DNA of 64,000 nt from Candidatus Avimonas caecicola (GTDB lineage Bacteria > Bacillota > Clostridia > Oscillospirales > Acutalibacteraceae). The stretch lies in the NCBI GenBank assembly GCA_904419875.1, contig CAJFTG010000002.1, positions 24,039-88,038 on the forward strand, written 5' to 3'. The notes beneath the pieces are model-generated. The model was not told where the DNA came from. It saw only the letters and a program-made list of their open reading frames with translations, and did no database searches. Of this stretch, positions 1,415-31,325 are shown one piece after another. Position 1 is the stretch's first letter, and the number at the start of each line of letters is the position of its first letter. The translations under genes were made by a program, and so were the position numbers.

Positions 1415-1445
1415 CCACCGCCCGCTTCTGCCGTAAAACCGGGAA

Positions 1446-1481
1446 GGGATGCAGGAGCGCCCGCGGGCGCTCCTGCATCCC
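1446..1481 (+). terminator. GC-rich hairpin after the surface-protein gene (16-bp perfect stem, 4-nt loop)
   Basis: gggatgcaggagcgcc-cgcg-ggcgctcctgcatccc, 32 nt after the stop at 1414. There is no clear T-tract, so intrinsic termination is uncertain. Confidence 0.45.
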
Positions 1482-1528
1482 GTCCCGGGCGGCCGGAAAA
1501 TCCTAAATCGTGAAAGGGATGGGCAACT

Positions 1529-2551: not shown

Positions 2552-2597
2552 TTCGGCCGGTCCTCTGCCGGTGAACGACAAGAAAGGAAAATCGCCT

Positions 2598-3887: not shown

Positions 3888-3938
3888 ACGGCCGTTCCAC
3901 TAAAGCCTACCGCAGGCTAGAAAAGGCAGGGATATTCC

Positions 3939-7786: not shown

Positions 7787-7817
7787 GGGATGTTGCCTCC
7801 TCCCCCTTGCGGGACAA

Positions 7818-9311: not shown

Positions 9312-9385
9312 ACAGTAACCTCCTTGAAATGGATTCTCCCTTTTGCGGACAGATCTATGGAAAGGCCGTCCGGTGGGGACAGGCC

Positions 9386-10345: not shown

Positions 10346-10375
10346 ATGGCTGTTCCCTCCTTTCAGGAAAACCGG

Positions 10376-11326: not shown

Positions 11327-11349
11327 GCGGCTTTCCCTCCTTTCCGGGC

Positions 11350-13623: not shown

Positions 13624-15646
13624 GCAGGCTCACCTCCGTTATAATCTCGCCGGCAAAAGTGAAAATCTGCTTGACCAGCAGGTAGGCCAGGGACAGCACC
13701 AGGATGGCCACCAGCATGAAAAAGGCGGTCAGCAGCAGGTTCTTGACCAGCTTGCGGAAGGAATAGTCGTGAATCTGGATGAGCGCCGCCATCAGGCCGC
13801 ACGCCACCCAGGCGATGAGGAAGAGGAGCGCCATCTGCCGGATAAACCGCTCGTTATAGGTCAGGGCGTTGAGCAGCAGCGTCAGCAACGGCAGCAGCAG
13901 GATCGCCGGGGAAAAGCTGTAGATGGTGACGATGTAGATGGAGCGCAGCGTGCCCTTTCCGTCCTGGATGGAGCTGATAAAGAAATTGCCGAGGATAAAC
14001 AGGCCGAAGGCGGCGGCCAGAAACAGGAAATTGCTGACGAGGGAAAAATCCTCCGCCTTCTGGGAGAAAAGGAAACCCGACGCCAGCTGAAAGACCACAA
14101 AGACCACAAAGAAGGCCGCAAAAACGAGGGTGGCGGAAAGCACGCTGCCCGCGCGGCCCGCCTGCACCTCGTAGGCGGTGTCGATCGGATGGAGGGCGAA
14201 CCGCCGGACCAGGAGCAGGTCCCGGCCCAGCCTGCCCGCACGGCCCGGAGCCTTCGGCGCGGGCGGGGGCGCGGCGGCCGCCTTTTTTGCCCGGCGACGC
14301 CTCCCCTCCCTCAGCGCCACGGCCAGCACGGCCAGGGCCAGCAGCGCGATCAGGATATACAGCATGTTGTCCTGCAGCCAGAGGTTGCGCAGCTCCCAGT
14401 AGGCTTCGCTGTACTCCTCCCTGGCGCCGGCCACCCGGAATTCCCGGATCGCCCGGGCGTAATCCCCCTGCTGCATATAGTTCTGCCCCATATACAGCCG
14501 CACAAAATACGAGGTGCTGTTCCGCATCAGCACCGATTCCAGTACCTCGCGGCTTTCGTCGTATTTCCCTTCGGAATAGAGGGTCAGCGCGGTGTAAATG
14601 TTCCGCTGAACGTCGGTCGGCTCAAAAATCTGGATATAATTCCGCTGTGCGTCCAGGACATACAGGCGGCCGTCCCCATCCTCGCCGATGCCGGTGGCCA
14701 GGTCGAAAAGGCCGACCCGCTCGGCGCCGTTGGAGCTTCCCCCGAACCGGCAGAGGAAATGGCCGTCCCGGTCCGCCACGGTGATATAGCCCGCGTTGTC
14801 CACCACCAGCATCCGGCCGTCCCCGGCCACAAAAAGGTCTCCCGCCGAGTCAAAGGCCGGAAGACCGCTGCGGCCGGCAAACAGGTCCAGCCCGTTCAGG
14901 CTGTGGCGCTGGACGGTGGAACCCGCCTGCTTGTTGACGGTATACACCAGCCCGTCGGAGCCGGTGAAAATACTGCCGTAGCTCGGCGGGACGCTGGGAA
15001 GGAACCGGTTGAGCTGGTCCTCGGTCAGCACCACGTCCAACAGCTTTTCAAACAAGCCCTTATTCACGTCGTTGGAGGCGAAGAAGCCCAGAAACTCCCC
15101 GGTGCCGTCCATATGGATGACGCCGGTGGTGGAATCCTCGCTGATAATATACGCCCCGCCGCTGCCGGCCGCCGCGATTTTCAGCGGGGAAAACCGGGTG
15201 TTTTTGCCGAAGCTGGGGGTCTGCGGGCGTTCAAACACCTGCTCCACCTCCCCGGTGGGAGAAAAGCGGTAAGCCAGCCCCGCGCCGCGGTCGGCGACGT
15301 AAATGCGGCCCTCCTCGTCGGCGGCCACCCCGCGGGGGTCCTGCAGCAGCCCTTCCCCCACGGTGAAGACGGTTTCCTTCTCAGTATCCAGCACCACCAC
15401 CCGCGCATTCCCGCTGTCCGCGATGTAGAGGGTATGCCCCGCCACATACAGGTCCTGGGCGTTGTCCAGGCCGAGGCTGCCGTACACCCCCACGGGAAGA
15501 TAGGCGTCCGGGGAAATTTCCATCCCCCCGCTGATGGTGGGGGAAACGGTATAGCTGGTGGAGCCGGCGTCCGCCAGCACGCCCAGGCAAAGCGCCGGGA
15601 ACAGCAGCGCCGTCAGGAGGCCGCGGCTCAAAGTGCGGCGTTTCAT
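13616..15646 (-). CDS. Signal peptide + NHL-repeat beta-propeller + TPR + C-terminal Yip1-type multi-TM domain
   Basis: The N-terminal half has repeated NHL-like blades (LYIADSGNARVVVLD, PRGVAADEEGRIYVADRGAG, GDLFVAGDGRMLVVDNAGYITVADRDG, GEDGDGRLYVLDAQRN). A TPR-like segment follows (YSEGKYDESREVLE...QQGDYARAIREF). Then come a TM helix, an Arg/Ala/Pro linker and about five more TM helices resembling Yip1 domains. Confidence 0.8.
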   Translation of the reverse strand: MKRRTLSRGLLTALLFPALCLGVLADAGSTSYTVSPTISGGMEISPDAYLPVGVYGSLGLDNAQDLYVAGHTLYIADSGNARVVVLDTEKETVFTVGEGLLQDPRGVAADEEGRIYVADRGAGLAYRFSPTGEVEQVFERPQTPSFGKNTRFSPLKIAAAGSGGAYIISEDSTTGVIHMDGTGEFLGFFASNDVNKGLFEKLLDVVLTEDQLNRFLPSVPPSYGSIFTGSDGLVYTVNKQAGSTVQRHSLNGLDLFAGRSGLPAFDSAGDLFVAGDGRMLVVDNAGYITVADRDGHFLCRFGGSSNGAERVGLFDLATGIGEDGDGRLYVLDAQRNYIQIFEPTDVQRNIYTALTLYSEGKYDESREVLESVLMRNSTSYFVRLYMGQNYMQQGDYARAIREFRVAGAREEYSEAYWELRNLWLQDNMLYILIALLALAVLAVALREGRRRRAKKAAAAPPPAPKAPGRAGRLGRDLLLVRRFALHPIDTAYEVQAGRAGSVLSATLVFAAFFVVFVVFQLASGFLFSQKAEDFSLVSNFLFLAAAFGLFILGNFFISSIQDGKGTLRSIYIVTIYSFSPAILLLPLLTLLLNALTYNERFIRQMALLFLIAWVACGLMAALIQIHDYSFRKLVKNLLLTAFFMLVAILVLSLAYLLVKQIFTFAGEIITEVSLRD

Positions 15647-15686
15647 GCAACCCTTCCTTTCTTGGACAAAGCGGAGCCGATCGGCC

Positions 15687-16562
15687 TCATTTGATGCCCG
15701 AATGCGCCATGGTGTTGAGCACCTTGTTCTGCATAAAGATAAAGATGACCAGGTTCGGCAGGAACATCACCAGCGTGGCGGCGGCCAGCACGCCCCGGCC
15801 CGCGACCGTGTTGCCCATGCCCACGATCAGGCTGGACAGGTAGAAGGCGAAGGTTCGCATCAGGTCGTTGTCCACATAATACGTGGAGATCTCCACGTTG
15901 TTCCAGGAGCTTTGAAAGGCCAGGATCGCCACGGTGGCCAGCGCCGGCTTCACGATCGGCGCGACGATGCCGGTCACGATCCGGAAATCCCCCGCCCCGT
16001 CGATCCGGGCCGCCTCGATCAGGGCGTCCGGCACCTGGTCGATGAACTGCTTGACCAGGAACAGCCCCACCGGCATCGCCAGCAGCGGCAGGAAAAGGAC
16101 GGCAAAATGATCGATCAGATGGGATTTTTCAATCAGCAGATACCGGGGGATCTGCACCGCCTGCGGCACGAACATCAGCGCCGCCGTGTTAACGGCGAAG
16201 AGCGCGCCCTTCCCGCGGAACTGCTTTTTGGACAGCACGTACCCGGCGTTCAGGGAGATCACCAGGGTGCAGGCCACCGCCAGCAGGGAGGAAACCACGC
16301 TGTTGAACAGATAGCGGGAAAGCGGCACGCCGGAGGCGTCGATCGAGGAGGAAATGTCGTAAAAATTCTCCAGCGTCGGCCTCTGCACGAAAAAGCGGGG
16401 CGGATAGGCGAACAGCTCGTCCATCGGCTTGAACGCGGTGGAGAAAATGTACAGGATGGGAAGCAGCATCACCGCCGCCAGCGGCAGCAGGTACGCGTAA
16501 ATCTTCACCTGGGACAGGCTGAACCGGCTGGGGTTGATTTTGCTGCCCTGAAAGCTGGACAT
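15687..16562 (-). CDS. Carbohydrate ABC transporter permease (MalG type), second pair
   Basis: GGAGAGG SD. 291-aa multi-TM protein with EAA loop (LIEAARIDGAGDFRIVTGIVAP). Confidence 0.9.
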   Translation of the reverse strand: MSSFQGSKINPSRFSLSQVKIYAYLLPLAAVMLLPILYIFSTAFKPMDELFAYPPRFFVQRPTLENFYDISSSIDASGVPLSRYLFNSVVSSLLAVACTLVISLNAGYVLSKKQFRGKGALFAVNTAALMFVPQAVQIPRYLLIEKSHLIDHFAVLFLPLLAMPVGLFLVKQFIDQVPDALIEAARIDGAGDFRIVTGIVAPIVKPALATVAILAFQSSWNNVEISTYYVDNDLMRTFAFYLSSLIVGMGNTVAGRGVLAAATLVMFLPNLVIFIFMQNKVLNTMAHSGIK

Positions 16563-16586
16563 GGATGGGACCTCTCCTTTCCCGCG

Positions 16587-17555
16587 TCAGTCGCGCTCCG
16601 CAAAGAATTTGTTGGCCAGCTGCGACACCAGAAGAATCAGAAGGAGCAGCAGCACCGACAGCGCCGCGGCATAGCCCATGTTGTACTGCAGGAAGCCCTC
16701 GTCCGTGATGTGGGAGACCATCGTCTGCCCGGCGTACTGCGGCGTCGGGTTGGAACCGGTCAGGTCGACGCCGATCTGCCCCGCCGAAAAAGCGTTGACA
16801 ATCGCCATCACCGCGCCGAACAGCATCTGGGGCTTCATGGAAGGGAGGGTGATATAGACAATCTCCTGAAAGCGGTTGCGGATCCCGTCGATATAGCCGG
16901 CCTCGTAGATCTCCGAATCGCCGTTGAGCACCCCGGCCAGCATGGACAGAAAGCCTACGCCCATGCTGGACCAGAGGGAGGCGACAATCATGATCGGCAG
17001 GATATAGTCCGGCGATACCAGCCACTGGATGGGGGTGTCGATCAGGCCGAGGGTGAGCAGGAAGTTGTTGAGATAGCCGTACTCATCCCCGGCAAACACC
17101 ACCTTCCACACCACCGACAGGGTGACGCCGGCGGTCATGGAGGGGGAATAAAAGATCAGCGCCAGGATGGTGCGCGGCCAGCGGGAGATCTGCGCCAGGG
17201 ACCAGGCGAGCAGAAACTGGAGCACAAAGCCGCCGGCCCCCACAACGACCGAGAAAACCATCATGTTCGGCAGGACGTTGCGCATGAGCACGTCGTCCTG
17301 GGTCAGCGCCTGGATATAGTTGGCCAGGCCGTTCCACTCCGGAGGGTTCACCATGTTGAAATAGGTGAAGCTCAGGATAATGGCCACAGCGATGGGTGCG
17401 GCGACAAAAAACAGGAACAGCACGCCGTAAGGACCGAGCAGCAGCGTATTGGACAGGAGGTCCCCCCGGCGCCGGGCTCTCCGGCCGCGGGACGGCTTCT
17501 CCTTTTTCTCCCCGTTTTCCCCTTTTCCGCCCTTCACGGCTGCCCCTCCTTCCAT
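16587..17555 (-). CDS. Sugar ABC transporter permease (MalF type), second pair
   Basis: AGGAGG lies 7 nt before the ATG at 17555, inside the 3' end of the upstream SBP gene (22-nt overlap). Loop [23 protein letters not shown]. Lys/Gly/Arg-rich N-terminal tail. Confidence 0.88.
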
Positions 17556-20452
17556 CGGTCGACCTCCTCGCCGGTGACGACTTCAAACGGCCTGACGATG
17601 TGGCCCTGCGCATCCATATAGCCGAACTCCTGCAGCTTCAGGGCAATTTCCCGGTTGCAGGTCAGAATCGCCTTGTCCAGCGCGGCGCGCGGCGTCTCCC
17701 CGCTGTAAACCACGCTGTTCCAGGCGTTGGACAGCTCGCGCTCCACCGCATAGTAGGCCGGGTTGCGGGGGACCTCCTTCGTCTGTTCAATCTGCTCCAG
17801 AATGATCGCCAGATCCTCCGGGTCGAACGCGGTGCTCTCCCTGAGCGCGGTGAGGTTGGCGGTGTTCCAGATATACTCCGGCCCGTTTTTCAGATACAGC
17901 TCCCGGGTATAGTCCGCCTGGGTCCCGGCGGACAGCCACCATTTCAGGAATTCCCAGCCCTCCTGATGCTTGTCGCTGTCCTGAAGCATGACGCAGCCGG
18001 TGCTGACCGCCAGCTGGCTGCGGTTGATGCTGCCGTCCTCCTGCTCCACGCCCACCGACGGGGCGATCCCCCACTGCCCCTTGATTTCCGGGGCGGCGTT
18101 CTGCAGAAGGATGTAGGTGGAGATATCCGACATGCCGATCGGGGTGACGCCCTTTTTAAAATTGTTGTAGAAGTTGGGGATCGACACGGGCAGGCTGTAC
18201 CGGGTGTACAGGTCGGTCATCAGGGTAAAGGCTTCGACGGTGTCCGGGTCGCCCAGCAGTACCTGGCTGCCGTCCTGCGAGTACAGCTTTCCGCCGAACT
18301 GGTTGATAAAGGGCATGGTCGCCCCGAAATGCTTGAGGGATTCCAGATTGGCAAGATAGGTGTTGTAGCTCATGCCGTACCGGCTGAGCACCGGCAGGAT
18401 CTCCAGCACCTCGTCCCAGGTCTGCGGCACCTCCAGCCCCAGGCTCTCCAGGATGTCCCTGCGGTAAAACTGCACCACGAAATTGCAGGTTTCGGGCAGG
18501 CCGAAGCACCGGTCGTCAATGCAGAAAATCGTAATCATTTCGGAATGAAAATCCCGGATGAATTCCCCGAAATCCGGGAACTGCCGCAGGTCGCACAGCG
18601 CGCCGCGCAGCCCGAAGTCAAACGGCCGGTAGGTGGTGGTGCCGAGCACCACATCGGGAGCGCTGCCGGCCGACACGGCAAAAAGCAGCTTCTGTTCGTC
18701 CGCCATGATGGAAAAATTGACGTTCCCCCCGTAGCTTCGCTCCGCCAGCTCCCGCAGGGCCTCCACGTGGAAGGTGGAACGGCCGACCCAGACGTTCAGC
18801 TCCTCCTCGGAGGTGGCGGAGGCGAGGTCGTAGTCCGCCACAAAGGTGTAGAACAGTTTTTCCACCTGCTTCCACAGCCCCTCGAAAAAGCCGGCCTCAT
18901 GGTGCCGCAGGTCCTCGGTGCGCGGGGACAGCAGGATTTGGTCGATCCCCATGGGCTGGTCGAGCAGGTCGTCCATAATCAGCGACACCCGCTCGGCGAC
19001 CGAGCCGCTGCCCTGGGAGAAGTAGGCGATGTTGTTGATGAAATAATCCAGATCCTCGGCGTACCGCCGCAGGGTGGAGGCCGCCACCTGCAGGTCGGCC
19101 ACGGCGGATATGGTCCGCTTTTCAGCCAGGGAGGCGATCGTCTCATAGGCGGAGCCGACCATCCCCGCGATGGACGACAGCTCCGACCGGATGTCGGGAA
19201 GGAACTCTTCCAGGTTCCAGTCCCGGTCTTTGTCCACCTTGTTGCCGGTCACCTTTTTGACCTCGAGCGCGATGCGGTTGATCTCGTTGACCGCTTCCTG
19301 CAGCGTTTCGTAGGTTTCGAACAGCGGCGAGGCGGTGCTTTCCAGGGTCAGGGTATGCTCGCCCTCCGCCAGGTAAATCCCCGCCGGGCCGCCCCCGGCG
19401 CTGACGACCGCCGTATCCAGGCCGTGCCCGGTATAGGGGAACGGGTAGCTCTGCAGCTCCGCAAAGGGGGTTTCCCCGTCGATGCGGATGTTTTTGAACA
19501 CCGGCATGCTGGACTTTTCAGACTGGCTGTAGCGCAGGCCCAGATAATACACGCCGCTCTGTTCCACCCGGAACGTATAGGTGACGGCGTTGCCCGGCTC
19601 CGCCCACATGGCGGCGGAAAGCATATTGATCCGACTGGAGGCGGGGGAATACGGGGTGCAGTTGTAATCCCGCGTCTTCTCTCCCCGTATGTAGGAGTGA
19701 GACTTCCAGGCATACTTCTCCCCTTCCAGCACAATGGCGGGGGCCTGTGACGCGCCGCCCTCCCCCACGCCGGCCGTTTGGGCATACTGCGCGTAGGACG
19801 GAGGGGCCTCCCAGGCGCCGAAGCGGATCTCCCGCACCTGGCAGGAAACGTTGTTTGACTGGATGTCGATGGTGTTGGACCCCTGCTCCAGCTCGAAGAC
19901 CAGGGGGACGTTGAGGTTGTAGACCGTGCTGTTGAGAGCCGCCGTCTGCCAGGTCGGCACATGCTCCGGCAGCGGGTACACCTCGTTGTGGAAGCGGTCG
20001 GTTTTATACTCCTGCGACTCGTCCCTCCACACCGAGGGAAGGGTGATCTCCCGGCTGTCGGTAAAGGGATATTCCCCGTTGATCTGCACGGAAACCGACA
20101 GGTCCTGGGTGGTCTCCTCCGGGATGCGGTAATCCAGAAAAAGGATGTACCCGCCCGCCGCGGCGCAGTCCACCGTGAAGGAAAGCCGGGCCTGGGGCTC
20201 CAGCGTGAGATACGGCCCGTCCCCGTCCGCCTCCCCGGACAGGCTGACGCCGGACGCCTCCGCCGTCAGCCGGATCTCCCCGGGCGACACGGCAAACGCC
20301 GCGTCAGACGATACCAGGTTGTCCGGCCGGTCCTGCTGCCACTGATAATAGGACGGAAGGGTTTCCGCGGTCAGCGCGCCGGCGGGAAACGCCGGGCAGA
20401 TGAAAAGCACGGCCGCCGCCGCGGCTGCCATGCGCCTGATTCGGCTTCGCAA
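17534..20452 (-). CDS. Giant (~970 aa) extracellular solute-binding protein with two N-terminal CBM6/35-like modules
   Basis: My preferred start is the TTG at 20452, 7 nt after GGGAGG. It gives the signal peptide (M)[27 protein letters not shown]. An alternative ATG lies at 20431, and the ORF-track start at 20590 lacks a signal peptide. There are two beta-sandwich-like modules (…[12 protein letters not shown]… and …[12 protein letters not shown]…), a helical linker, then a family-1 SBP domain in the C-terminal ~430 aa. Confidence 0.8.
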
Positions 20453-20522
20453 GACAGGGCCTCCCTTCTCGGATGCCTCTGCCGCCCGCCGCTGGCGGGC
20501 GGCAGAGGCCTTCGTTTTCTCG

Positions 20523-22010
20523 TCAGCCGGTGATATCCTTCCAGGCGGTTTCCGTGGTCGCGTTGATGGTGTCCTGGAGGTTCTGCGCAATGTCCGCCGC
20601 CGTCTGGGAGCCGGTGTACAGGATATTCTGCGTCACCTGATTGGTGACCAGGTTCTCCCAGGTGTTGTTGTACTCCGGCACAATCCGCCAGCAGTCCACA
20701 TAACCGCGGTCAAAGTTGTCCAGCATATAATCGATGCCCGGCTTGTAGCCGACATCCATGCTCTTCCACAGCTCCACGGCTTCGGGGTCGCTGATGGGCA
20801 GCAGGGACAGGGATTCGATCGCGTCCGGCAGGTCGGCGGCGATGTCCGGGTATTTCTCCGCCGTCGCCTGTTTGTCGTAGCTGTTGATGATGTCCACCTT
20901 GTCGCGGTAGCCCTCCAGGTCATAGCTCATATAGCGGATAAGCTCCCATGCCTCCTCCGGGTGCTCGCAGCTGGTGGTGATGCCGTAGTAGTCCACGCTC
21001 AGGCCGGGACGGGACACGTCGCCTTCACCGGAGGAGGGGAAGGGATAATAGTCCCACTCAAAACCGGTGTAGGCGGGATCGGTTTTGTCGAAGCGCAGCG
21101 TCCAGGAGAAATCCTCCTGAAAGGCGACCCGGCCGAGCGCCCAGGGGTTCTCGGTGGTGCCGACCGTCTGCATGAGATAATCGTTGCGCTTCTCGATAAC
21201 CTCCGTCTGCTCCGCCGACCCTTCCTCAAAGTTGGCGGGCAGGCCGATCGCGTCGATATTCTCCCAGATCACATAATCCCGGTCGACGATCTCCTTCATC
21301 AGGTTCACCGTCTCGATCCATTCTTCCCCCAGGGTATATTTTTGGGTCGAGTAGTTGTAGGCCGCCCAGCCGAAATCATCGTTCATCTGGGCCGGCAGGT
21401 GCTTCATCAGCCAGATGATGTTGTTGGCGCCGATGGATTCGCCCTTGACCGAGGCCGCCTCCATGATGTCCATGAAGTCGTCGATGGTCCAGTCGTACCC
21501 CGGCTTCTCGATATTCAGGTCTTCCAGCAGCGTCAGGTTTACCTTGACGCCATGCAGGAACACGTTGCTGGGAAGCACGTACAGCTTGTCGCCAATCGAA
21601 CCGAACTGAATGAAGTTTTCGTATATCGCCTGATTTTCGTCCTGCTCATAGTATGGCTTCAGATCGATGAGCCATTCGTTTTTAACGGGGGTGTACACGT
21701 TTTCGACATTGATGATATCCGGCATTTTATCCGCCGCCGCCAGCTGCGCCAGATCTTCGGTGCCGAGCCATTTGCCCTCCTCCGCCAGCTCAACTTTGAT
21801 GTTCGGATGCTTTTCGGTGAATTTTTCCATCCAGGGGGCTTTCAGGGCGTTGACCTCCCAGCTCGCCAGCGTCAGGGTGACGGGTTCGCCGTCTCCGCCG
21901 CCCGTTCCCTCGGAACCGGTCCCGCCCTCTCCGGGCTTACAGCCCGCGGCAAAGCCCATGACCAGAGTGGCCGCACAGGCCAGACCGAGCAGTCTTGCGA
22001 TTTTCTTCAT
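20523..22010 (-). CDS. Extracellular sugar-binding lipoprotein (ABC SBP), first gene of the operon
   Basis: The ATG at 22010 is preceded by GGGAGAGG. Lipobox MKKIARLLGLACAATLVMGFAAGC followed by a Gly-rich linker. 495 aa. Confidence 0.88.
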   Translation of the reverse strand: MKKIARLLGLACAATLVMGFAAGCKPGEGGTGSEGTGGGDGEPVTLTLASWEVNALKAPWMEKFTEKHPNIKVELAEEGKWLGTEDLAQLAAADKMPDIINVENVYTPVKNEWLIDLKPYYEQDENQAIYENFIQFGSIGDKLYVLPSNVFLHGVKVNLTLLEDLNIEKPGYDWTIDDFMDIMEAASVKGESIGANNIIWLMKHLPAQMNDDFGWAAYNYSTQKYTLGEEWIETVNLMKEIVDRDYVIWENIDAIGLPANFEEGSAEQTEVIEKRNDYLMQTVGTTENPWALGRVAFQEDFSWTLRFDKTDPAYTGFEWDYYPFPSSGEGDVSRPGLSVDYYGITTSCEHPEEAWELIRYMSYDLEGYRDKVDIINSYDKQATAEKYPDIAADLPDAIESLSLLPISDPEAVELWKSMDVGYKPGIDYMLDNFDRGYVDCWRIVPEYNNTWENLVTNQVTQNILYTGSQTAADIAQNLQDTINATTETAWKDITG

Positions 22011-22250: not shown

Positions 22251-22270
22251 AATAACATCGATGTCACAAC
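22251..22270. promoter_or_regulatory. Candidate LacI-family operator (site a): aataACATCGATGTcacaac
   Basis: 10-bp perfect palindrome ACATCGATGT with a central CG. It shares A(C/T)AT(C/T)GATGTC with the sites at 22438..22457 and 24064..24081. Confidence 0.45.
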
Positions 22271-22604: not shown

Positions 22605-22633
22605 AGTATAGTACGCCACGTTTTATTTGTCAA
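22605..22633 (-). promoter_or_regulatory. Near-consensus sigma-A promoter for the ten-gene ABC/Yip1 operon
   Basis: The minus strand reads TTGACA-17 nt-TATACT (-35 at 22633..22628, -10 at 22610..22605). It lies 25 nt downstream of the LacI stop and about 590 nt upstream of the first start codon. Confidence 0.6.
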
Positions 22634-23668: not shown

Positions 23669-23905
23669 TTGTCTTCCATCCCGCGTTTCGTCCCCGCAAT
23701 TGTGTTCTTCCGCGTCCCTTTGCGTGCTTGTGAGCGCTTTTTCGCCGCTTATGTTTCTTCCGCTTCCCCGCGCGCCTGTTTGCCGCTGTATACGGCGTTT
23801 TCCGCCTGCCCTTCCGGCCCTTCCGCCCCTGCCGGACGGACGGGCCGGCCGTACCCAAAGCCTGCGCCGGGAGCCCGGCAAAGCTTTCCCGCAGCTCTTT
23901 TTTGG

Positions 23906-23935
23906 ATTATATCACACGCCTGTTTCACATGTCAA
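23906..23935 (-). promoter_or_regulatory. Near-consensus sigma-A promoter for the LacI gene
   Basis: The minus strand reads TTGACA-18 nt-TATAAT with an extended -10 (TGaTATAAT). It lies about 230 nt upstream of the LacI ATG. Confidence 0.6.
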
Positions 23936-24031: not shown

Positions 24032-24060
24032 TTGACAATTTTCCTTTCTGCATGTATTCT
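24032..24060 (+). promoter_or_regulatory. Sigma-A promoter for the GH172/DUF4185-like operon
   Basis: TTGACA (24032..24037), 17-nt spacer, TATTCT (24055..24060). The operator-like palindrome starts 4 nt downstream. Confidence 0.55.
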
Positions 24061-24063
24061 GAA

Positions 24064-24081
24064 TGTAACATTGATGTCACA
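24064..24081. promoter_or_regulatory. Candidate LacI-family operator (site c): TGTAACATTGATGTCACA
   Basis: 14 of 18 positions are self-complementary. It shares the ACAT(C/T)GATGTCACA core with site a and overlaps the predicted transcription start. Confidence 0.5.
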
Positions 24082-24424
24082 AGCGCAGAGGAACCGCGGG
24101 CTGTATGGAAACATATGGCCTTTTTTTGCTGCCCGAAATCGTCAGCCCCCGGCCGCAGCCGCAAATGCCGCAGAAACAACCGCAACCAACGGGAAGCGGC
24201 GAAAACGGCGGCGGGGGCAGCTGGAGGAGGCAGGGGCGGCAGAGGAGGCAGGAAGCGGCGGGGAGAGCAAACGGGCACACGTCCCCGCGCAGGGAAGGCC
24301 GCCTGCCTGCGGCGCGCCGGCGCGGCGGCCCCCGCCTGTATACCTGAAAATCCACGACCCGACGGAAGGAGCCGGGGGCCAGCCCCGCCGTCCTTCCGGC
24401 AGAGAAGAAAGGAACGGTCAACTC

Positions 24425-25513
24425 ATGAATTTCAACGGAATCTGCACCTCGCTGGGAGACCTGACAACCCTGTCGGACGCCCGCTCCCGCTCCATCTGTC
24501 CGGAAAACCCCACCGGGGAAAAGGGGAAAGGCGGCATGTGCCCGCTGGAAAAGGGAAGCGCTTACCGCGCCGCCCGTGACCTTGGCACCGGCTGGAAGGT
24601 CAATCCCTATGTCGTGATCCCTGCCGGCGAAACCTTTGAACTGGCGGCGATCGAAGGGATGGGCTGCATCCAGCATATCTGGATGACCCCCACCGGGAAA
24701 TGGCGCAACGCCATCCTCCGGATCTATTGGGACGGCCAGGCGCATCCCTCGGTGGAAGCGCCGGTGGGCGATTTCTTCTGTTCGGGCTGGAACCGGTACG
24801 CGCAGCTGAGCTCGCTGGCCGTCTGTGTGAACCCCGGCAGCGCCTTCAACTGCTATTGGCAGATGCCGTTCCGGAAAAGCTGCCGGATTACCCTGGAAAA
24901 CCGCGACGAGGAGCCGGTCACCTATTATTATCAGATCGATTACACCCTGACCGGGATCCCGGAGGACTGCGCCTATTTCCACGCCCGCTTCCGCCGGGTC
25001 AACCCGCTGCCGTACAAGGAGGTATACACCATCCTGGACGGCGTGAAGGGCCGCGGCCATTATGTGGGCACCTACATGGCCTGGGGCGTCAACAACTGCG
25101 GCTGGTGGGGCGAAGGCGAAATCAAGTTCTATATGGACGGCGATAAGGAATATCCCACCATCTGCGGCACCGGCACGGAGGATTATTTCTGCGGCTCCTA
25201 CAACTTTGAAAACCCCGTCACCCACGACGGCTATGTGGCCTTCACCACGCCGTACTCCGGCCTGCACCAGGTGATCGTCCCCGACAGGCTGTATGCCAGC
25301 CAGATGCGGTTCGGCATGTACCGCTGGCACATCACCGACCCCGTCCGCTTCGAAAGCGACCTGCGGGTGACCATCCAGGCCCTGGGCTGGCGGGAAGGCG
25401 GCCGCTACCTGCCTCTGCAGGACGACATCGCCTCGGTAGCCTACTGGTACCAGACGCTGCCCTCCGTCCCCTTCCCGCCGCTGGCCGGTAAGGACGAGCT
25501 TGAAGTCATTTGA
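24425..25513 (+). CDS. DUF2961 / glycoside hydrolase family 172 protein (cytoplasmic, no signal peptide)
   Basis: The ATG at 24425 follows GAAAGGAACGG. Sequence MNFNGICTSLGDLTTLSDARSRSICPENPTGEKGKGG...GMGCIQHIWMT...ILRIYWDG...VEAPVGDFF... and the later WWGEGEIKFYMDGD...PTICGTGTEDYF match my memory of DUF2961. The ORF-track start at 23132 is an artefact. Confidence 0.8.
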   Translation: MNFNGICTSLGDLTTLSDARSRSICPENPTGEKGKGGMCPLEKGSAYRAARDLGTGWKVNPYVVIPAGETFELAAIEGMGCIQHIWMTPTGKWRNAILRIYWDGQAHPSVEAPVGDFFCSGWNRYAQLSSLAVCVNPGSAFNCYWQMPFRKSCRITLENRDEEPVTYYYQIDYTLTGIPEDCAYFHARFRRVNPLPYKEVYTILDGVKGRGHYVGTYMAWGVNNCGWWGEGEIKFYMDGDKEYPTICGTGTEDYFCGSYNFENPVTHDGYVAFTTPYSGLHQVIVPDRLYASQMRFGMYRWHITDPVRFESDLRVTIQALGWREGGRYLPLQDDIASVAYWYQTLPSVPFPPLAGKDELEVI

Positions 25514-25569
25514 GCGGCCGCCGGGGAAAACGCCCGGATGAAACCGCAACGGAGAAAGGGTCTGTTAGA

Positions 25570-27468
25570 ATGAAAAGCAAACGGCTGCTTCGCCGCGGGA
25601 CAGTCTTCCTGCTCTGCGGCGCACTTCTGCTGCTGACGGCATGCGGCGGCAATACGGCTTCTTCCAGCCCGGCGGACTCCTCCGGCTTTTCCGGCCCCTC
25701 CGGCTCTTCGGCCTCCTCCGCCGGCACGAGCGGAACAAGCGGGGAGAGCGGCGCCACGGGGGAGGACGGGAAAACGCAGGGAACCACGTCCGGCAGCGGC
25801 GGGGGCGGAGGCGGAGGCGGGGACGCCGGGCAGAACGGCGGTCCCACTTCACCGCCATCCGGCAGCTCCGGCTCCAGTCAGCCGGATACCCCCGCCGCAT
25901 CCGGCACGCCGCTGGATTCGATCTCCGCGGACGACGGGATCACCAGTACCTTCTTCGGTTCGGTGGAAATCGAGGAGAGGAACTCCTACACCGCCCCGGG
26001 AAGCAGCGGCGACCTCTGGCCGGGCGCCTGGTCGGACGACGGCTACCTCTATGTAGCCAACGGCGACGGCCCCGGCTTCGGGAGCGTCAACGCCGATATC
26101 GCGGTGGGCCGCATCAGCGGCACCCCTTCCACAGGGCTGCGCGGGGAAGGGCTGGCCTGCGGCGACGCCGTGGCGGAAGTCTGGTCCGGCTCCCAGTTCA
26201 ACCGCAAGCCCACCGGCATGGTTTCCGTGGGCGGGGTGCTGTATCTGGCGGTGCAGGACCTGCGCTCCACCTCCAACGGCATCTTTGACGAAGCGCCGGC
26301 CGCCTCCATCTACCAATCCACCGACAAGGGCAGGACCTGGACCGGCACCGACGAGCCGATGTTCGACGACTACGTCTTTACCACCATCCTGTTCCTCGAC
26401 TACGGCCAGGACAACGAGAACAGCCCGGACGGCTATGTCTACGCCTATGGGCTGGACAATAACTGGCGGGATTCCTTCTCCGGGCTGGTGGACGACCCGG
26501 TCAGCCTTTATCTGGCCCGGGTGCCGGCGGACGGCGTGATGGACCGCAGCAAATGGGAGTTTTTCTCCGGGACCTCTTCCTCTCCTTCGTGGAGCCGGGA
26601 CATCAACGCCCGCAAGCCGGTGCTGACCGACACCCGGCGCGTCTACGAACGGGTAACCAGCGGCGTGCCCAGCGTGCGGGACATGTCGGTGATCTCCCAG
26701 GGCAGCATCGTTTACAACGAGCCGCTGGACCGGTATATTTATACCTCCTGGACAGAATATACCTATGAGTTCTACGAATCCCCCACCCCTTACGGGCCGT
26801 TTAAGCTCTTCGCGCGCAAGGATTTCGGCGCCTATCCCTGGAACAGCCAGAAATACGGCGGCTACGGCTGTGTCATCCCCTCCAAGTTCATCAGCGCCGA
26901 CGGCCTGGAAATGTATATCGTCTCCAACACCTTTGTCGACGGGGTCAATCAGTACGGCTACAACATGCGGAAGATGACCGTCACCCTGGCCTCTTCCGCG
27001 CAGGCAAACAACGCGAAGGGCCCGAAAAACCTGGCTGCGGACGGCAGCCTGAACCCGGTGGTTATCAGCACCAGCAATGGGAACGGGCGGCCCCACCGCC
27101 TTAACGACGGTTCCCTCGAATACGAGGAGCAGAGCTGGACGGGCGAGATGAAGGACATCGACTACTGGGGCTACAGCTTCCGCAAGGTCTGCCGGTTCAA
27201 TACCATCGAATACACCACCGGCGAGATGAAGAACGACGGCGGCTGGTTTGCCACCCTCGGCGTCCAGGTCCGGCAGAACGGAAAATGGGTGAACGTGAGC
27301 GGCGGGACGGTCTCTCCCCGCTATCCCAAAACCATGAGCACCGGCTCCAACACCACGTACACCATCCGCTTCGACGAGATCAGCGGCGACGCTGTTCGGA
27401 TCATCGGCCGGCCGGGAGGGTCCATGCGGTACACCACCATCTCGGAGCTGGCGGTGTACTACCGCTGA
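25570..27468 (+). CDS. Lipoprotein: Asp-box beta-propeller glycoside-hydrolase-like domain (tentatively DUF4185/GH183-like) + C-terminal discoidin (F5/8 type C, CBM32-like) module
   Basis: ATG at 25570. Lipobox LLLLTAC, then a Ser/Gly-rich linker. Motifs DLWPGAWSDDGYLYVANGDGPGFG, KPTGMVSVGGVLYLAVQDL, Asp-box STDKGRTWTG and YGGYGCVIPSKFIS. The C-terminal ~150 aa end in ISELAVYYR, like discoidin CBMs. The family assignment is unverified. Confidence 0.7.
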   Translation: MKSKRLLRRGTVFLLCGALLLLTACGGNTASSSPADSSGFSGPSGSSASSAGTSGTSGESGATGEDGKTQGTTSGSGGGGGGGGDAGQNGGPTSPPSGSSGSSQPDTPAASGTPLDSISADDGITSTFFGSVEIEERNSYTAPGSSGDLWPGAWSDDGYLYVANGDGPGFGSVNADIAVGRISGTPSTGLRGEGLACGDAVAEVWSGSQFNRKPTGMVSVGGVLYLAVQDLRSTSNGIFDEAPAASIYQSTDKGRTWTGTDEPMFDDYVFTTILFLDYGQDNENSPDGYVYAYGLDNNWRDSFSGLVDDPVSLYLARVPADGVMDRSKWEFFSGTSSSPSWSRDINARKPVLTDTRRVYERVTSGVPSVRDMSVISQGSIVYNEPLDRYIYTSWTEYTYEFYESPTPYGPFKLFARKDFGAYPWNSQKYGGYGCVIPSKFISADGLEMYIVSNTFVDGVNQYGYNMRKMTVTLASSAQANNAKGPKNLAADGSLNPVVISTSNGNGRPHRLNDGSLEYEEQSWTGEMKDIDYWGYSFRKVCRFNTIEYTTGEMKNDGGWFATLGVQVRQNGKWVNVSGGTVSPRYPKTMSTGSNTTYTIRFDEISGDAVRIIGRPGGSMRYTTISELAVYYR

Positions 27469-27501
27469 ATGCCCCACCGAATTGAGAAAGGACGGAACGG
27501 C

Positions 27502-29166
27502 ATGGGAAAAGGAAGAATCGCAGCCTCCGCTCTGGCTTTTGCCTGTGCGGCCGGGCTGCTGGCCGGCTGCCATCCGACGGAAGGAGAGACTGCCATGAAA
27601 AAAGTCCCGGAGACTGTGGAAAGCGAGACCAACAGCACCTTTTTTTCCACCGTGCACATCGAGGATAAAAACACCGTATCCATCCCCCTGAGCGACGGCG
27701 ACCTCTGGCCGTCCGCCTGGGCGGAGGACGACTTCCTCTATGTCGCCAACGGGGACGGCAAAGGGCTGGACACGGCGGACCCCTGGCAGGACATCCGGGT
27801 CGGCCGGGTGCGGGGAAACCCCTGGGACAACAGCCTGAGCGGGGTGAACCTCGCCTTTGCGGACGGAGTGGCGAAGGTGTGGAACAACCCGGACGAATAC
27901 AACCGCAAGCCCACCGGCATGGTCTGTGTGGACGGCGTGCTGTACCTCGCCGTGCAGGACCTGCGCAAGTCGAGCATCGGCATCTTTGACGACGCACCCA
28001 CCGCCTCCATCTACAAGTCCACCGACAAGGGCGTCACCTGGACGGGGACCGGCGAGCCAATGTTCGACGATTACCGGTTCACCACCGTGATGTTCCTCGA
28101 CTACGGCAAAAACAGCGAAAACTGCCCGGACGAGTATGTCTATGCCTACGGGCTGGACTACAACTGGCGGGATTCCTTCACCAACCGGGTCATCGACCCG
28201 GTGGACCTCTATCTGGCGCGGGTGCACAAGGACCACGTCATGGACCGTTCCCGCTGGGAATTCTTCGCCGGGACGGACGACGGCGGCCAGCCGCTGTGGG
28301 ATGCGGACATCAGCCGGCGGCAGCCTGTCCTGCACGACGAGCGGAAGGTGTATACCAACGTTAACCCCGCCTACAGCGGCGTCAGCAGCATGACCGTGCT
28401 CTCCCAGGGCAGCATTGTGTACAACCGGCCGCTTGACCGGTACATCTACACCTCCTGGACCGAATACACCTTCGAATTTTACGAATCCCCCACCCCCTAC
28501 GGGCCGTGGAAGCTGTTTTTGCAGAAGGATTTCGGCGGCTACCCCTGGACCTCGGATAAGCACGGCGGCTATGCCTGCACCATCCCCTCCAAATTCATCA
28601 GCGAGGACGGGCGGGAAATGTGGGTGCTCTCCGCCACCTTTAACGGCGGCGCCCAGCAGTACCGCTTCACCGCCCGCAAGCTGACGGTCGAACCCTATGA
28701 CCCGGAGGGGGCTTCCAACGCCCGGTCGGAAAACAACCTTGCGCTGGACGGCGCGGTCCCCTATACCCGCTGCAACCGCTACGGGAAGGGGGCTGTCCTC
28801 AACGACGGGGACAAGACCTCGGCCGAGGACAGCTGGACCGGCGAAAACAAGGACGAGGATTACTGGGGCTACACCTATCCGGATTACCGGAACTTCAATG
28901 CCGTGGAATACACCACCGGCAATATCGACGTGCAGGGCGGCTATTTTGAAGACCTGCGCGTTCAGGTGCGGCGCGGCTTTGAATGGGTGGACGTGGAAGG
29001 GCTGACCGTTTCCCCGGACTATTCCTTTGATGAAAACGTGAAGCCGTTCACCACCTACACCCTGACCTTCGATGAGATCGACGGCGACGGCATCCGGGTG
29101 GCGGGCGCCCCGGGCGGCACCCTTTCCTATACCGGCATTTCGGAGCTGGCGGTCTATTACCGCTGA
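27502..29166 (+). CDS. Tandem paralog of 25570..27468 (DUF4185-like propeller + discoidin module), lipoprotein
   Basis: ATG at 27502 after GAGAAAGGACGG. Lipobox LLAGC. It is colinear with the upstream gene (DLWPSAWAEDDFLYVANGDGKGLD, KPTGMVCVDGVLYLAVQDL, STDKGVTWTG, HGGYACTIPSKFIS, ISELAVYYR). Confidence 0.7.
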   Translation: MGKGRIAASALAFACAAGLLAGCHPTEGETAMKKVPETVESETNSTFFSTVHIEDKNTVSIPLSDGDLWPSAWAEDDFLYVANGDGKGLDTADPWQDIRVGRVRGNPWDNSLSGVNLAFADGVAKVWNNPDEYNRKPTGMVCVDGVLYLAVQDLRKSSIGIFDDAPTASIYKSTDKGVTWTGTGEPMFDDYRFTTVMFLDYGKNSENCPDEYVYAYGLDYNWRDSFTNRVIDPVDLYLARVHKDHVMDRSRWEFFAGTDDGGQPLWDADISRRQPVLHDERKVYTNVNPAYSGVSSMTVLSQGSIVYNRPLDRYIYTSWTEYTFEFYESPTPYGPWKLFLQKDFGGYPWTSDKHGGYACTIPSKFISEDGREMWVLSATFNGGAQQYRFTARKLTVEPYDPEGASNARSENNLALDGAVPYTRCNRYGKGAVLNDGDKTSAEDSWTGENKDEDYWGYTYPDYRNFNAVEYTTGNIDVQGGYFEDLRVQVRRGFEWVDVEGLTVSPDYSFDENVKPFTTYTLTFDEIDGDGIRVAGAPGGTLSYTGISELAVYYR

Positions 29167-29206: not shown

Positions 29207-29245
29207 TTCGCCCCCGGTGCGGATAACCGCCGTGCCGGGGGCGAA
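29207..29245 (+). terminator. Strong hairpin after the GH operon (11-bp GC stem with nested stem in the loop)
   Basis: ttcgcccccgg-(17 nt)-ccgggggcgaa, 41 nt after the stop at 29166. There is no T-run on the plus strand, while the minus strand would have TCTTTTCT. Confidence 0.5.
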
Positions 29246-29269
29246 TACTATGCCGGGAGGTGAACCGAA

Positions 29270-29443
29270 ATGAGCCCGAAGGAACTGATGTATATCGAGG
29301 ACGCGCTGGGTCACGAGAAATTCCTGAAAACGCAGTGCCAGGAAGCGGTCCAGAACCTGCAGGACGGCGACCTGAAAAACTGCGTGCAGCAGATGCTCAA
29401 CAAGCATCAGCAGCTGTTCGACAGCTTCTATCAGCTGGTGTAA
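29270..29443 (+). CDS. Small spore-coat-associated protein (57 aa), partner of the CotF-like gene; not in the supplied ORF track
   Basis: ATG at 29270 follows GGGAGGTGA. Translation MSPKELMYIEDALGHEKFLKTQCQEAVQNLQDGDLKNCVQQMLNKHQQLFDSFYQLV. This is a helical peptide of the type usually found just upstream of Coat F genes in Clostridia. Confidence 0.6.
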   Translation: MSPKELMYIEDALGHEKFLKTQCQEAVQNLQDGDLKNCVQQMLNKHQQLFDSFYQLV

Positions 29444-29472
29444 GCCACCGGCGGACGAAAGGAGGAAACCGC

Positions 29473-29718
29473 ATGGACGACAAATGCATTATGGAAAACC
29501 TGCTGCTCACCACCAAAGGGGTGTGCGACCTCTATCTGCACGGCACCATCGAATCCGGGACGATGAACGTGCACAGCGCCTTTGACTGCGCGCTGAAGGA
29601 CTCCCTGACCATGCAGGACGACATCTATAAGAAGATGACGGCCAAGGGCTGGTATCCCACCGAGCAGGCGGAGCAGCAGAAGCTCCAGCAGGTCAAGCAG
29701 AAGTTCGCCAACCAATAA
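29473..29718 (+). CDS. Spore coat protein, CotF-like (Coat F domain)
   Basis: ATG at 29473 follows AAAGGAGGAAACC. Translation MDDKCIMENLLLTTKGVCDLYLHGTIESGTMNVHSAFDCALKDSLTMQDDIYKKMTAKGWYP. The ORF-track start at 29260 is in the same frame but is Arg/Gly-rich. Confidence 0.75.
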   Translation: MDDKCIMENLLLTTKGVCDLYLHGTIESGTMNVHSAFDCALKDSLTMQDDIYKKMTAKGWYPTEQAEQQKLQQVKQKFANQ

Positions 29719-29775
29719 AACCGGGCGGACGAGAGCACCGCCGCCGGCATGGCCGGCGGCTTCCAGATCGGTCAA

Positions 29776-29832: not shown

Positions 29833-30633
29833 TCACGTTTCCACCGGTTCGCTCCCCGGAACCTTTTTGACCAGGAAGAGCATCGGGTCGCCGTCGCCGG
29901 CGGGCATGGAGAACAAAGGCCCGACATCCACAAACAGGCAGTCCTCATCCGTTTCGTCCCGGTACAGGTCCATCCCCCGGTCCGTGCCCACCTTCTCTCC
30001 GTGCCGGTGGACGGCGCCCAGCGTCGGAACATAAAAGCGGTACTGCGCGCCGTTCCATTCAAACCGGCCATCCACCCAAAGGTTGTAGCGCACATAGGCC
30101 GGCCCGGCCTTGAAAACCAGGCTTTCGGTTTCCGGAACCCCCTGAATCCGGTAGAGGGAACGCTCCGCGTCCAGCGCCGTCCCCACGGCGGTTTCTTCCA
30201 CAAATTCCTCTCCCCCCCGGTACAGAGAGCCGCCCCAGGCCAGGGCGCATGGAATCATGACATTATCCGCAGGGCCGGTGGCGGCGGGCGCCCCGGCGGA
30301 GGAATCCCCTTCGACGCGGGCGGTTTCGCCGGACACCGTGCCGCCGGAAGAGGGGCCGCCCGTCCTGCCGTCCGCGTTTTCGGCAGACGAGGCGGAAACC
30401 GCCGGCGCCGCGTCGTCCAGCGGCGGCGTTTCCGGCGTCCCGGCGCCGGGGCCGGCCAGGAACAGGCAGGCCGCCGCTGCCGACCCCGCCAGCGCCAGCA
30501 CGGCCCGGGAACCGGGCCGCCCGCGGCCCTCCGGCACCCGTGCGGCGAGAAGCCGGCAGGCAAGCCGCCGGCAGGCCGCCTCATCCAGCGCGATTTCCTG
30601 CACCGCCGTTCTATAAGCCGCTTTTGTCAGCAT
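29833..30633 (-). CDS. Membrane-anchored protein downstream of the ECF sigma gene, putative anti-sigma factor
   Basis: ATG at 30633, 9 nt after GGAAAGGA. It has a short cytoplasmic N-terminus (AAYRTAVQEIALDEAACRRLACRLLA), one TM helix (AVLALAGSAAAACLFLAG) and an extracytoplasmic C-terminal domain. The function is inferred from position only. Confidence 0.5.
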   Translation of the reverse strand: MLTKAAYRTAVQEIALDEAACRRLACRLLAARVPEGRGRPGSRAVLALAGSAAAACLFLAGPGAGTPETPPLDDAAPAVSASSAENADGRTGGPSSGGTVSGETARVEGDSSAGAPAATGPADNVMIPCALAWGGSLYRGGEEFVEETAVGTALDAERSLYRIQGVPETESLVFKAGPAYVRYNLWVDGRFEWNGAQYRFYVPTLGAVHRHGEKVGTDRGMDLYRDETDEDCLFVDVGPLFSMPAGDGDPMLFLVKKVPGSEPVET

Positions 30634-30857: not shown

Positions 30858-31325
30858 TCATCCACCCTCCTCCAGCTCCAGGCGGAGCTTTTTCCTGGCC
30901 CGGCCCAGCCAGGTCTGCACCGTATGCGGGTTCTTCCGCAGAATGGCGGCGATCTCCCGGACAGCATAGCCCTCGTAATAATATAGGTAAAGCACCGTGC
31001 GGTAAGGCGGCGGAAGGGCCCGGACCTGTTCCCAGACCTCCCAGGCGTCGGACGCCTCCGCCGCCCTGTCCTCTTCCAGCGGCCCGGTGCGCCGGAACCA
31101 GGCGGAGCGCAGACGGTCCTTGCACAGGTTCGCCGTGACCCGGTAAAGCCATGCCTTCTCCTGCTCGCCGCTCTCAAACGGCTTTTCCCGCTGCAGCCAT
31201 TTGAGCAGGGCTTCCTGCACCACGTCCTCCGCCTCTGTCCGGCTGGACAGGTAATGAGCGGCCAGCCGCAGCAGGGCGCTGCCGTACCGCGCGACCGCCT
31301 GTTCCACCTCCTGCGCGCTTTTCAC
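30858..31325 (-). CDS. RNA polymerase ECF-type sigma-70 family factor
   Basis: Region 2 (AEDVVQEALLKWLQ...AWLYRVTANLCKDRLR) and region 4 (PPPYRTVLYLYYYEGYAVREIAAILRKNPHTVQTWLGRARKKLR). The start is a GTG at 31325 with a poor SD, so the start is uncertain. Confidence 0.85.
   Translation of the reverse strand: MKSAQEVEQAVARYGSALLRLAAHYLSSRTEAEDVVQEALLKWLQREKPFESGEQEKAWLYRVTANLCKDRLRSAWFRRTGPLEEDRAAEASDAWEVWEQVRALPPPYRTVLYLYYYEGYAVREIAAILRKNPHTVQTWLGRARKKLRLELEEGG

Follow-up and report, generated by a model that had tools for sequence, protein, structure and literature searches.

The 64,000-nucleotide (nt) stretch examined here (the window; G+C ~63%) comes from Candidatus Avimonas caecicola and holds a predicted glycan-degradation operon, a candidate module for the use of D-arabinan. 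Three plus-strand genes, separated by intergenic gaps of 56 and 33 nt, diverge from the gene of a LacI-family repressor (Table 1). The first encodes a protein of glycoside hydrolase family GH172, and the other two encode lipoproteins, here called A and B, in which a propeller of apparent GH183 lineage is joined to a C-terminal domain resembling carbohydrate-binding module (CBM) family 32. An initial annotation of the region had placed three genes behind one promoter; the three genes are present, although the first begins at 24425 and not at 24032, and lipoprotein B most likely at 27502 and not at 27469. D-arabinan is the arabinan of arabinogalactan and lipoarabinomannan (LAM) of Mycobacteriales such as Corynebacterium and Mycobacterium, where it forms an essential scaffold of the cell wall and is the target of ethambutol. 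To our knowledge, the first enzymes that cleave it were not described until 2023; they came from Bacteroidota, Actinomycetota, a myxobacterium and a phage.

The product of the first gene matches the Pfam family DUF2961 (PF11175) with 331 bits (E 4.5e-99) and shows no signal peptide, which bears out its earlier description as a cytoplasmic GH172-type protein. Its closest solved relative is the exo-alpha-D-arabinofuranosidase ExoMA1 of Microbacterium arabinogalactanolyticum (8IC8; E 1e-128, 54% identity), likewise an intracellular enzyme, with alphaFFase1 (E 2.6e-47) and DgGH172c (E 3.5e-38) both much more distant. In the alignment the catalytic glutamate pair is kept as Glu230 (WWGEGE) and Glu252 (GTGTEDYF), the counterparts of E270/E291 in alphaFFase1 and E233/E254 in DgGH172c. 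Furthermore, Asn260 (SYNF) aligns with Asn253 of ExoMA1 (AWN253F), a residue that blocks alpha-D-fructofuranose and whose position is taken by Gly299 in alphaFFase1 (PMC10509167). The latter, a difructose dianhydride I synthase/hydrolase of Bifidobacterium dentium, thus has family and catalytic pair in common with the protein studied here, and differs from it in the glycine and in its far weaker match. These comparisons support placing the GH172 protein with the arabinofuranosidases and not with the difructose-dianhydride enzymes, and we rejected a difructose-dianhydride role in view of Asn260 in place of Gly and the much closer kinship with ExoMA1. The closest genomes by this gene are gut metagenome-assembled genomes (MAGs) labelled uncultured Ruminococcaceae or Eubacteriales (87-89% identity). 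Contigs identical to this one are present in metagenome assemblies of ENA and Logan, Logan run ERR3414577 among them.

Lipoproteins A and B are paralogues with 59% identity over 513 amino acids (aa). Both have a signal peptide ending in a lipobox of the form [LVI][ASTVI][GAS]C (LLLLTAC with Cys25 in A, GLLAGC with Cys23 in B), and in A a Ser/Gly-rich linker follows at residues ~26-125. The motifs STDKG[RV]TWTG, GDLWP.AW..D..LYVANGDG and ISELAVYYR occur in both proteins, and STDKG.TW is an Asp-box that aligns to the Asp-boxes of sialidases; tandem paralogous lipoproteins with such motifs are what had been described from the sequence at the outset. In public gene calls B begins at Met43 (27595) and has 523 aa; a strong internal GGAG resembling a Shine-Dalgarno sequence precedes this start, and the signal peptide is lost. 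The start is most likely ATG 27502, and not 27469, because the in-frame lipobox upstream of Met43 is kept (as FISGC) in an orthologous locus of 85% identity, L005, despite divergence and a 6-nt indel.

Several comparisons connect the propellers to GH183. The Pfam model DUF4185 (PF13810) matches A with 51.5 bits and B with 42.4 bits against a cutoff of 39.5, that is, just above the cutoff and over the central blades only (profile positions 61-296 and 88-264 of 309). A profile of homologues of EndoMA1, the GH183 endo-D-arabinanase of Microbacterium, finds A (E 3.5e-9) and B (E 1.3e-8) and no other match in the window. Additionally, a canonical GH183 profile was seeded with EndoMA1 residues 10-323, as delimited by alignment to a small canonical DUF4185 protein that adjoins a Paenibacillus homologue of the lipoproteins (locus L088) and itself matches 8HHV/8IC1; aligned by hhalign to the profile of the lipoprotein family, it gave a probability of 99.7% and an E value of 1e-26. 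An AlphaFold (AF2) model of B, with a predicted local distance difference test (pLDDT) score of 92.9, retrieved EndoMA1 (8IC1/8HHV) at ranks 1-2 in Foldseek (E 6e-21; whole-chain template modelling (TM) score 0.46-0.53), followed at lower ranks by sialidases with CBM32 (1e-13) and GH43 enzymes (1e-10), with AraH2 of M. tuberculosis (8AN0) also among the matches. Identity as sialidase/GH33 or GH43 was rejected, these fold matches being far weaker than that to EndoMA1. The propeller is five-bladed and GH183/GH43-like. A phmmer search with B against the PDB sequences returned nothing relevant. Together, profiles and models support the view that A and B belong to the GH183 lineage as distant relatives of D-arabinan-cutting enzymes, an assignment that had at first been proposed tentatively. 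The outcomes that the initial annotation had named as refuting it, lipoproteins without a significant DUF4185 match, or a GH172 protein grouping firmly with difructose-dianhydride enzymes together with non-catalytic lipoproteins, were not seen.

A putative catalytic pair can be pointed out within the propellers. Asp67 (GDLW) and Asp85 (NGDG) of B, equivalent to Asp148 and Asp166 of A, show no variation among 94 sequences and are separated by 18 residues, the spacing of the catalytic aspartates D33/D51 of EndoMA1 (PMC10509167) and D170/D188 of DgGH4185b (PMC10115798). Asp85 is placed on D51 by hhalign at very low confidence, and Asp67 is matched to D33 by ungapped motif comparison alone (TDLG...FGD against GDLW...NGD). 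Restricted to the N-terminal blade, hhalign was not significant; it preferred a 'GD' further on, which we rejected because its Asp is not conserved. By motif and spacing alone, then, Asp67 and Asp85 would be the counterparts of the catalytic pair.

The C-terminal domain had been described as a discoidin-like CBM, and structure comparison upholds this. Modelled alone, the last 150 residues reach a pLDDT of 93 and match CBM32/discoidin folds in Foldseek with TM scores of 0.6-0.72 and E values down to 2e-7, among them the CBM of BgaA, CBM32s of C. perfringens and the N-terminal domain of galactose oxidase. Direct matches to Pfam F5_F8_type_C remain below threshold (A, E 0.099; two of 20 subfamily members, lowest E 6.5e-4), and the domain profile returned only spurious BurrH repeat matches among PDB sequences. 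A transitive link exists nonetheless: repeats in two other proteins, P0283 and P0290, match residues ~440-552 at 35-42% identity (whole-protein E 2.3e-73 and 5.5e-67, summed over 4-5 repeats), and these repeats are annotated as PF00754 at E 3e-25 and 1e-18. Models and sequence links thus support a CBM32/discoidin-like domain. The same module recurs as 3-6 tandem copies in giant proteins of 1,400-2,500 aa (P0261, P0272, P0277, P0283, P0290), which also have PKD, fn3, subtilase, ricin or GSDH domains. Since it occurs in such giant multidomain proteins, the module is, as judged from sequence, a mobile binding unit not confined to GH183-like enzymes.

The lipoproteins belong to a large but compact and strongly conserved subfamily. 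At 90% clustering it counts over 1,200 homologues, ~50-58% identical over their full length; when clustering is set to 50%, 146 representatives have scores below 1e-30. Their hosts include Paenibacillus, Cohnella, Bacillaceae, Chloroflexota, Armatimonadota, Streptomyces and Micromonospora. PF13810 matches 11 of 20 subfamily members at E<=0.01, so that about half escape the Pfam model. In the literature searched we found no mention of the Firmicute members, the two founding papers, PMC10509167 and PMC10115798, included.

We counted the genomic company of the subfamily in 32 loci from metagenomes, each with 10 kb or more of sequence flanking the subfamily gene. GH172 is present in 23 of them and canonical GH183 in 11. 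Other genes that keep recurring there encode GH116 (the exo-beta-D-arabinofuranosidase family), an FGGY kinase, a FucI-like isomerase, DUF6259, a solute-binding protein (SBP) with permeases, and LacI; all these match the parts list of the Microbacterium D-arabinan pathway, which has been defined by experiment. For example, one Chloroflexia MAG locus (L172) holds the subfamily gene, canonical DUF4185, FGGY, GH172 and GH116 in a single cluster, and in Paenibacillus silvisoli and a Cytobacillus the subfamily gene is paired with GH172. In three loci of close relatives of the window organism (L009 at 14881-18314, L092 and L097) two more genes of the operon follow gene B, one for an FGGY kinase and one for an L-fucose/D-arabinose isomerase; a Haloplasmataceae locus has the same set. 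L-fucose isomerase (FucI of E. coli) also isomerises D-arabinose. Where those three loci have the kinase and isomerase, the window (29260-29720) and L005 have a 57-aa open reading frame (ORF) and a CotF spore-coat gene. The subfamily gene is an orphan in Streptomyces and Micromonospora. Seen from the subfamily, the pairing with GH172 is the rule; seen from GH172 it is rare. Hundreds of genomes from many phyla have ExoMA1-like genes with identities of 68% or more. The pairing that the initial annotation had singled out in this genome is therefore real and not peculiar to it, the subfamily being widespread and usually found beside GH172.

The ExoMA1-like GH172 proteins (loci L008-L087) are 68-75% identical across Bacillota, Chloroflexota, Acidobacteriota, Planctomycetota, Verrucomicrobiota and others. 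Their genes mostly adjoin those of sugar ABC (ATP-binding cassette) transporters, of Gfo/Idh/MocA oxidoreductases or of ribulokinase-like proteins, and endo-enzymes are missing from the vicinity. Given that D-arabinan fragments are the only known substrate, it is striking how well conserved and how widely distributed these proteins are.

Control of the operon can be read in part from its flanks. A promoter with a palindrome at its start site, divergent from lacI, had been described before, and both elements (promoter 24032-24060 and operator O1) prove invariant in four orthologous loci whose flanking sequence has diverged; the -35 and -10 boxes are both kept in L005, L008 and L009. The arms of O1 are complementary at 7 of 8 positions, and the palindrome lies directly 3' of the -10 box, overlapping the predicted start site. 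It had zero chance matches in 100 shuffles. A second copy, O2, for which shuffles likewise expect 0 matches, lies in the leader of an operon of SBP and ABC transporter genes, and the two-operator layout with the second copy at the matching relative position also occurs in L001, L008, L009 and L092. Because the hydrolase operon has the operator in common with the SBP operon, which comprises two SBPs plus permeases, the LacI regulator probably controls the two together. The coordinates of lacI, start codon ATG 23668 included, are the same in the public gene call on L001, a contig identical to the window, and the lacI promoter block is kept in orthologous loci. At the other end, the stem-loop behind lipoprotein B, which has no U-run, is likely the end of the operon.

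Between promoter and GH172 start codon lies a leader of ~360 nt. A hairpin followed by a U-run, situated ~35 nt 3' of the predicted start site and ~300 nt 5' of the GH172 start codon, looks like an intrinsic terminator or attenuator; its stem is kept and its loop is variable in L005, L008 and L009. The lacI-GH172 intergenic region, hairpin included, matches no Rfam family. Two GC-rich stretches, 24125-24425 in the GH172 leader (~300 nt, 70% GC) and 23669-23900 in the lacI leader (~230 nt, 64% GC), are missing from orthologous loci and have no repeats elsewhere in the window. An 80-aa low-complexity ORF called there by public pipelines (24105-24347) is missing from the orthologs, and we treat it as spurious.

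The neighbourhood holds three SBPs and five permeases by Pfam, the numbers that the initial annotation had given. SBP 1 is the candidate oligosaccharide receptor of the regulon; in the large SBP 2 the N-terminal ~600 aa match no family. These two and two permeases come first in a long minus-strand cluster behind O2 (6140-22010), which continues with an NHL/TPR/Yip1 membrane protein (13616-15646) and a DUF5696 protein (11350-13623) and ends with two further permeases and two CBM4_9-like proteins (7818-9311 and 6140-8050), all on the minus strand. A third sugar-transport set occupies 83-5843 on the plus strand; besides a permease and an SBP it encodes a protein of 443 aa that matches no family and, at 3939-5843, a DUF4838 protein. 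Shortly downstream of the operon lie genes for spore coat F and SpoVAC, from which the host is taken to be a spore-former. Also on that side, an extracytoplasmic function (ECF)-type sigma factor gene (30858-31325, minus strand) is followed by that of a 266-aa protein without a family match (29833-30633, minus strand), possibly an anti-sigma factor; the pair is missing from L005.

Table 1. Predicted genes and regulatory elements of the locus, in window coordinates
Feature	Position	Strand	Basis and remarks
Two ABC permease genes	16587-17555, 15687-16562	-	Pfam BPD_transp_1
Large SBP 2, ~965 aa	17534..20431	-	SBP domain C-terminal
SBP 1, 495 aa	20523..22010	-	Pfam SBP_bac_1; gene call in L001
Operator O2, AATAACATCGATGTCACA	22251..22268	.	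Second O1 copy; in 590-nt leader of SBP/ABC operon
SBP/ABC operon promoter, TTGACA-17-TATACT	22605..22633	-	Own promoter of that operon
LacI-family repressor gene, 336 aa	22658..23668	-	Pfam LacI helix-turn-helix (HTH) and Peripla_BP_1/3/4; ATG at 23668
lacI promoter, TTGACA-18-TG-TATAAT	23906..23935	-	Promoter scan; perfect extended -10; 12/12 matches
GH172 operon promoter, TTGACA-17-TATTCT	24032..24060	+	Promoter scan
Operator O1, TGTAACAT-TG-ATGTCACA	24064..24081	.	Imperfect palindrome read from sequence
Leader hairpin, GGCUGUAUG...CAUAUGGCC, then U-run	24098..24128	+	Terminator scan
GH172 exo-alpha-D-arabinofuranosidase-like protein, 362 aa	24425..25513	+	Pfam DUF2961
Lipoprotein A, 632 aa	25570..27468	+	Lipobox Cys25; linker; GH183-like propeller; C-terminal CBM32/discoidin-like domain
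Lipoprotein B, 554 aa	27502..29166	+	Lipobox Cys23; GH183-like propeller; CBM32/discoidin-like domain ~400-554
GC-rich stem-loop, 16 bp, 3' of lipoprotein B stop	29207..29246	+	Fold -34.9 kcal/mol, z -4.3

Clusters that combine GH183 and GH172 for D-arabinan are already known, including an ABC-type version in a Gram-positive actinomycete. The cluster of Microbacterium arabinogalactanolyticum encodes EndoMA1/2 (GH183), ExoMA1 (GH172), ExoMA2 (GH116), an ABC transporter, an isomerase and a kinase (PMC10509167). Common to it and the locus studied here are secreted endo-enzymes of DUF4185 lineage with an intracellular GH172 (54% to ExoMA1), and uptake by an ABC transporter with SBP, a Gram-positive logic suited to a cell without an outer membrane. 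The present locus differs in its separate endo-subfamily (~14% to EndoMA1, with Gln for Glu243), in a CBM32-like instead of a CBM4/61-like module, in lipid anchoring, in LacI control with a predicted operator, in a host that is an anaerobic spore-forming gut bacterium of Clostridium type, and in having no GH116, isomerase or kinase within the window. The D-arabinan polysaccharide utilisation locus of Dysgonomonas gadei, with DgGH4185a/b and DgGH172a-c (PMC10115798), likewise pairs GH183 with GH172 in a gut habitat, its aspartates D170/D188 have the same spacing of 18, and the third glutamate is dispensable in DgGH4185b; it is, however, a SusC/D-type Bacteroidota system with periplasmic GH172s, in contrast to the ABC importer and cytoplasmic GH172 here. 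The endogenous endo-D-arabinanases Rv3707c and AraH2 of mycobacteria (GH183), of the same fold family (AraH2 being the 8AN0 of the Foldseek matches), remodel the wall of their own producer, whereas the host here is without D-arabinan, so that the role would be nutritional or antagonistic. Three things appear to be new from the sequence comparisons: a GH183-like subfamily, divergent and unassayed, whose propeller is joined to a discoidin-type module; the wide spread of this subfamily in Firmicutes and other phyla; and its occurrence in gut Clostridia, together with a defined operator. The locus had been called an undescribed Gram-positive one; this holds for the Firmicute and gut setting and for the divergent subfamily, but not for the ABC-type arrangement, known from Microbacterium.

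We consider it likely that the operon is a LacI-repressed module for the use of D-arabinofuranan (D-arabinan). Observed are the order of the genes, their family relationships, the folds, the conserved residues, the conservation of the operator and the association across genomes; enzyme activity, substrate, transporter specificity and inducer are read from these sequences and models. A and B would be anchored on the cell surface, where the CBM32-like domain would hold the glycan while the GH183-like propeller cuts it internally by a retaining mechanism through the invariant pair (Asp67/Asp85 in B). The neighbouring ABC system, which bears the same operator, would import the oligosaccharides, and the cytoplasmic GH172 would free alpha-D-arabinofuranose units from them. 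An oligosaccharide or D-arabinose would presumably release LacI from both operators (24064-81 and 22251-68). The earlier choice among D-arabinofuranose, galactofuranose and fructan-derived substrates is thereby kept as furanosidic and narrowed to D-arabinofuranose.

Several observations weigh against this reading. The subfamily is only ~14% identical to EndoMA1, and hmmsearch with its profile fails to reach EndoMA1 and finds only Asp-box similarity to sialidases; the N-terminal blade with the aspartate pair is aligned at confidence neither by Pfam nor by hhalign. The essential Glu243 of EndoMA1 aligns with an invariant Gln (Gln302 in B, Gln377 in A), and neither Arg198 nor Trp138 of EndoMA1 is conserved, Arg198 aligning with Trp222, which adjoins Arg223. 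Because these three residues are replaced, the minus subsites differ from those of EndoMA1. Moreover, the subfamily lies within 10 kb in only three of the 80 best ExoMA1-like GH172 loci; since such GH172s are common and the subfamily is rarely nearby, GH172 alone does not fix the substrate. Finally, tblastn with representatives of GH116, FGGY, FucI and DUF6259 found nothing in the window, and as GH116, isomerase and kinase are not there, the pathway would be completed elsewhere in the genome or be partial in this lineage. On the active site, Glu243 of EndoMA1 is a third essential carboxylate that supports Arg198 (PMC10509167), while in DgGH4185b the equivalent Glu is dispensable, E381A retaining activity (PMC10115798), so the third Glu is not universal in GH183. 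The catalytic centre is thus probably intact, with minus subsites built differently.

The main rival keeps the enzyme families and changes the substrate: the subfamily would have shifted to another furanoside-containing polymer, such as D-arabinofuranose-containing O-antigens, pilin or exopolysaccharide glycans, or galactofuranans, with GH172 trimming the fragments. Replacement of the minus-subsite residues Arg198, Glu243 and Trp138 would fit such a shift, as would a CBM32-like module in place of the CBM4/61-like one of EndoMA1 (PMC10509167), the orphan genes of actinomycetes, and the canonical GH183 in 11 of the 32 subfamily loci, which suggests non-redundant roles. Nevertheless, the neighbours (GH172 with its Asn determinant, GH116, FucI-type isomerase and FGGY kinase) point to D-arabinose as product, and all DUF4185 lobes tested were endo-D-arabinanases, inactive on D-galactan (PMC10115798); we regard a changed substrate as unlikely.

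Two further explanations carry considerably less weight. A and B might be non-catalytic surface lipoproteins that bind glycan and capture it for the transporter, leaving GH172 as the sole enzyme of the operon; the Gln at the position of Glu243, the catalytic blade that is not alignable at confidence, and the very nature of surface lipoproteins with a CBM would agree with this. Yet Asp67 and Asp85 are invariant in the 94 sequences, from several phyla, at the canonical 18-residue spacing, the equivalent Glu is dispensable in DgGH4185b (PMC10115798), and a propeller that keeps ~50% identity along its whole length from phylum to phylum fits a strongly constrained enzyme, which makes mere binding very improbable. 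Slighter still are the chances that GH172 acts on alpha-D-fructofuranosides (difructose dianhydrides from inulin or caramel) with the lipoproteins as unrelated neighbours. Although alphaFFase1 belongs to GH172 and ExoMA1 itself has weak alpha-D-fructofuranosidase activity (PMC10509167), the protein here has Asn260 where Gly is needed to admit the hydroxymethyl group of fructose (PMC10509167) and is far closer to ExoMA1 than to alphaFFase1. Furthermore, the three genes share one conserved promoter and operator, with gaps of 56 and 33 nt between them, and the pairing recurs in unrelated lineages.

Within the preferred reading, D-arabinan use, a bolder proposal can be put forward tentatively, as a possibility that we hold to be rather doubtful: the lipoproteins would form a functionally distinct branch of GH183, in which the minus subsites are rebuilt (Gln for Glu243, Trp/Arg for Arg198) and a discoidin-type module is dedicated to binding. 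This branch might cut parts of D-arabinan that canonical GH183 does not, such as branched or capped termini or the arabinan of intact walls. It would allow gut Clostridia, soil Bacillota and Chloroflexota to attack the walls of corynebacteria and mycobacteria or to live on them.

Annotation is concerned as well: the Pfam model misses roughly every second member of the subfamily, and in public gene calls one of the two paralogues is left without its signal peptide. The subfamily could supply endo-arabinanases with new cleavage patterns for structural work on arabinogalactan and LAM and for diagnostics. Moreover, the existence of this separate and highly conserved subfamily in Firmicutes and other phyla would mean that more kinds of organisms than so far known recycle or attack these walls, bacteria of the human and chicken gut among them.

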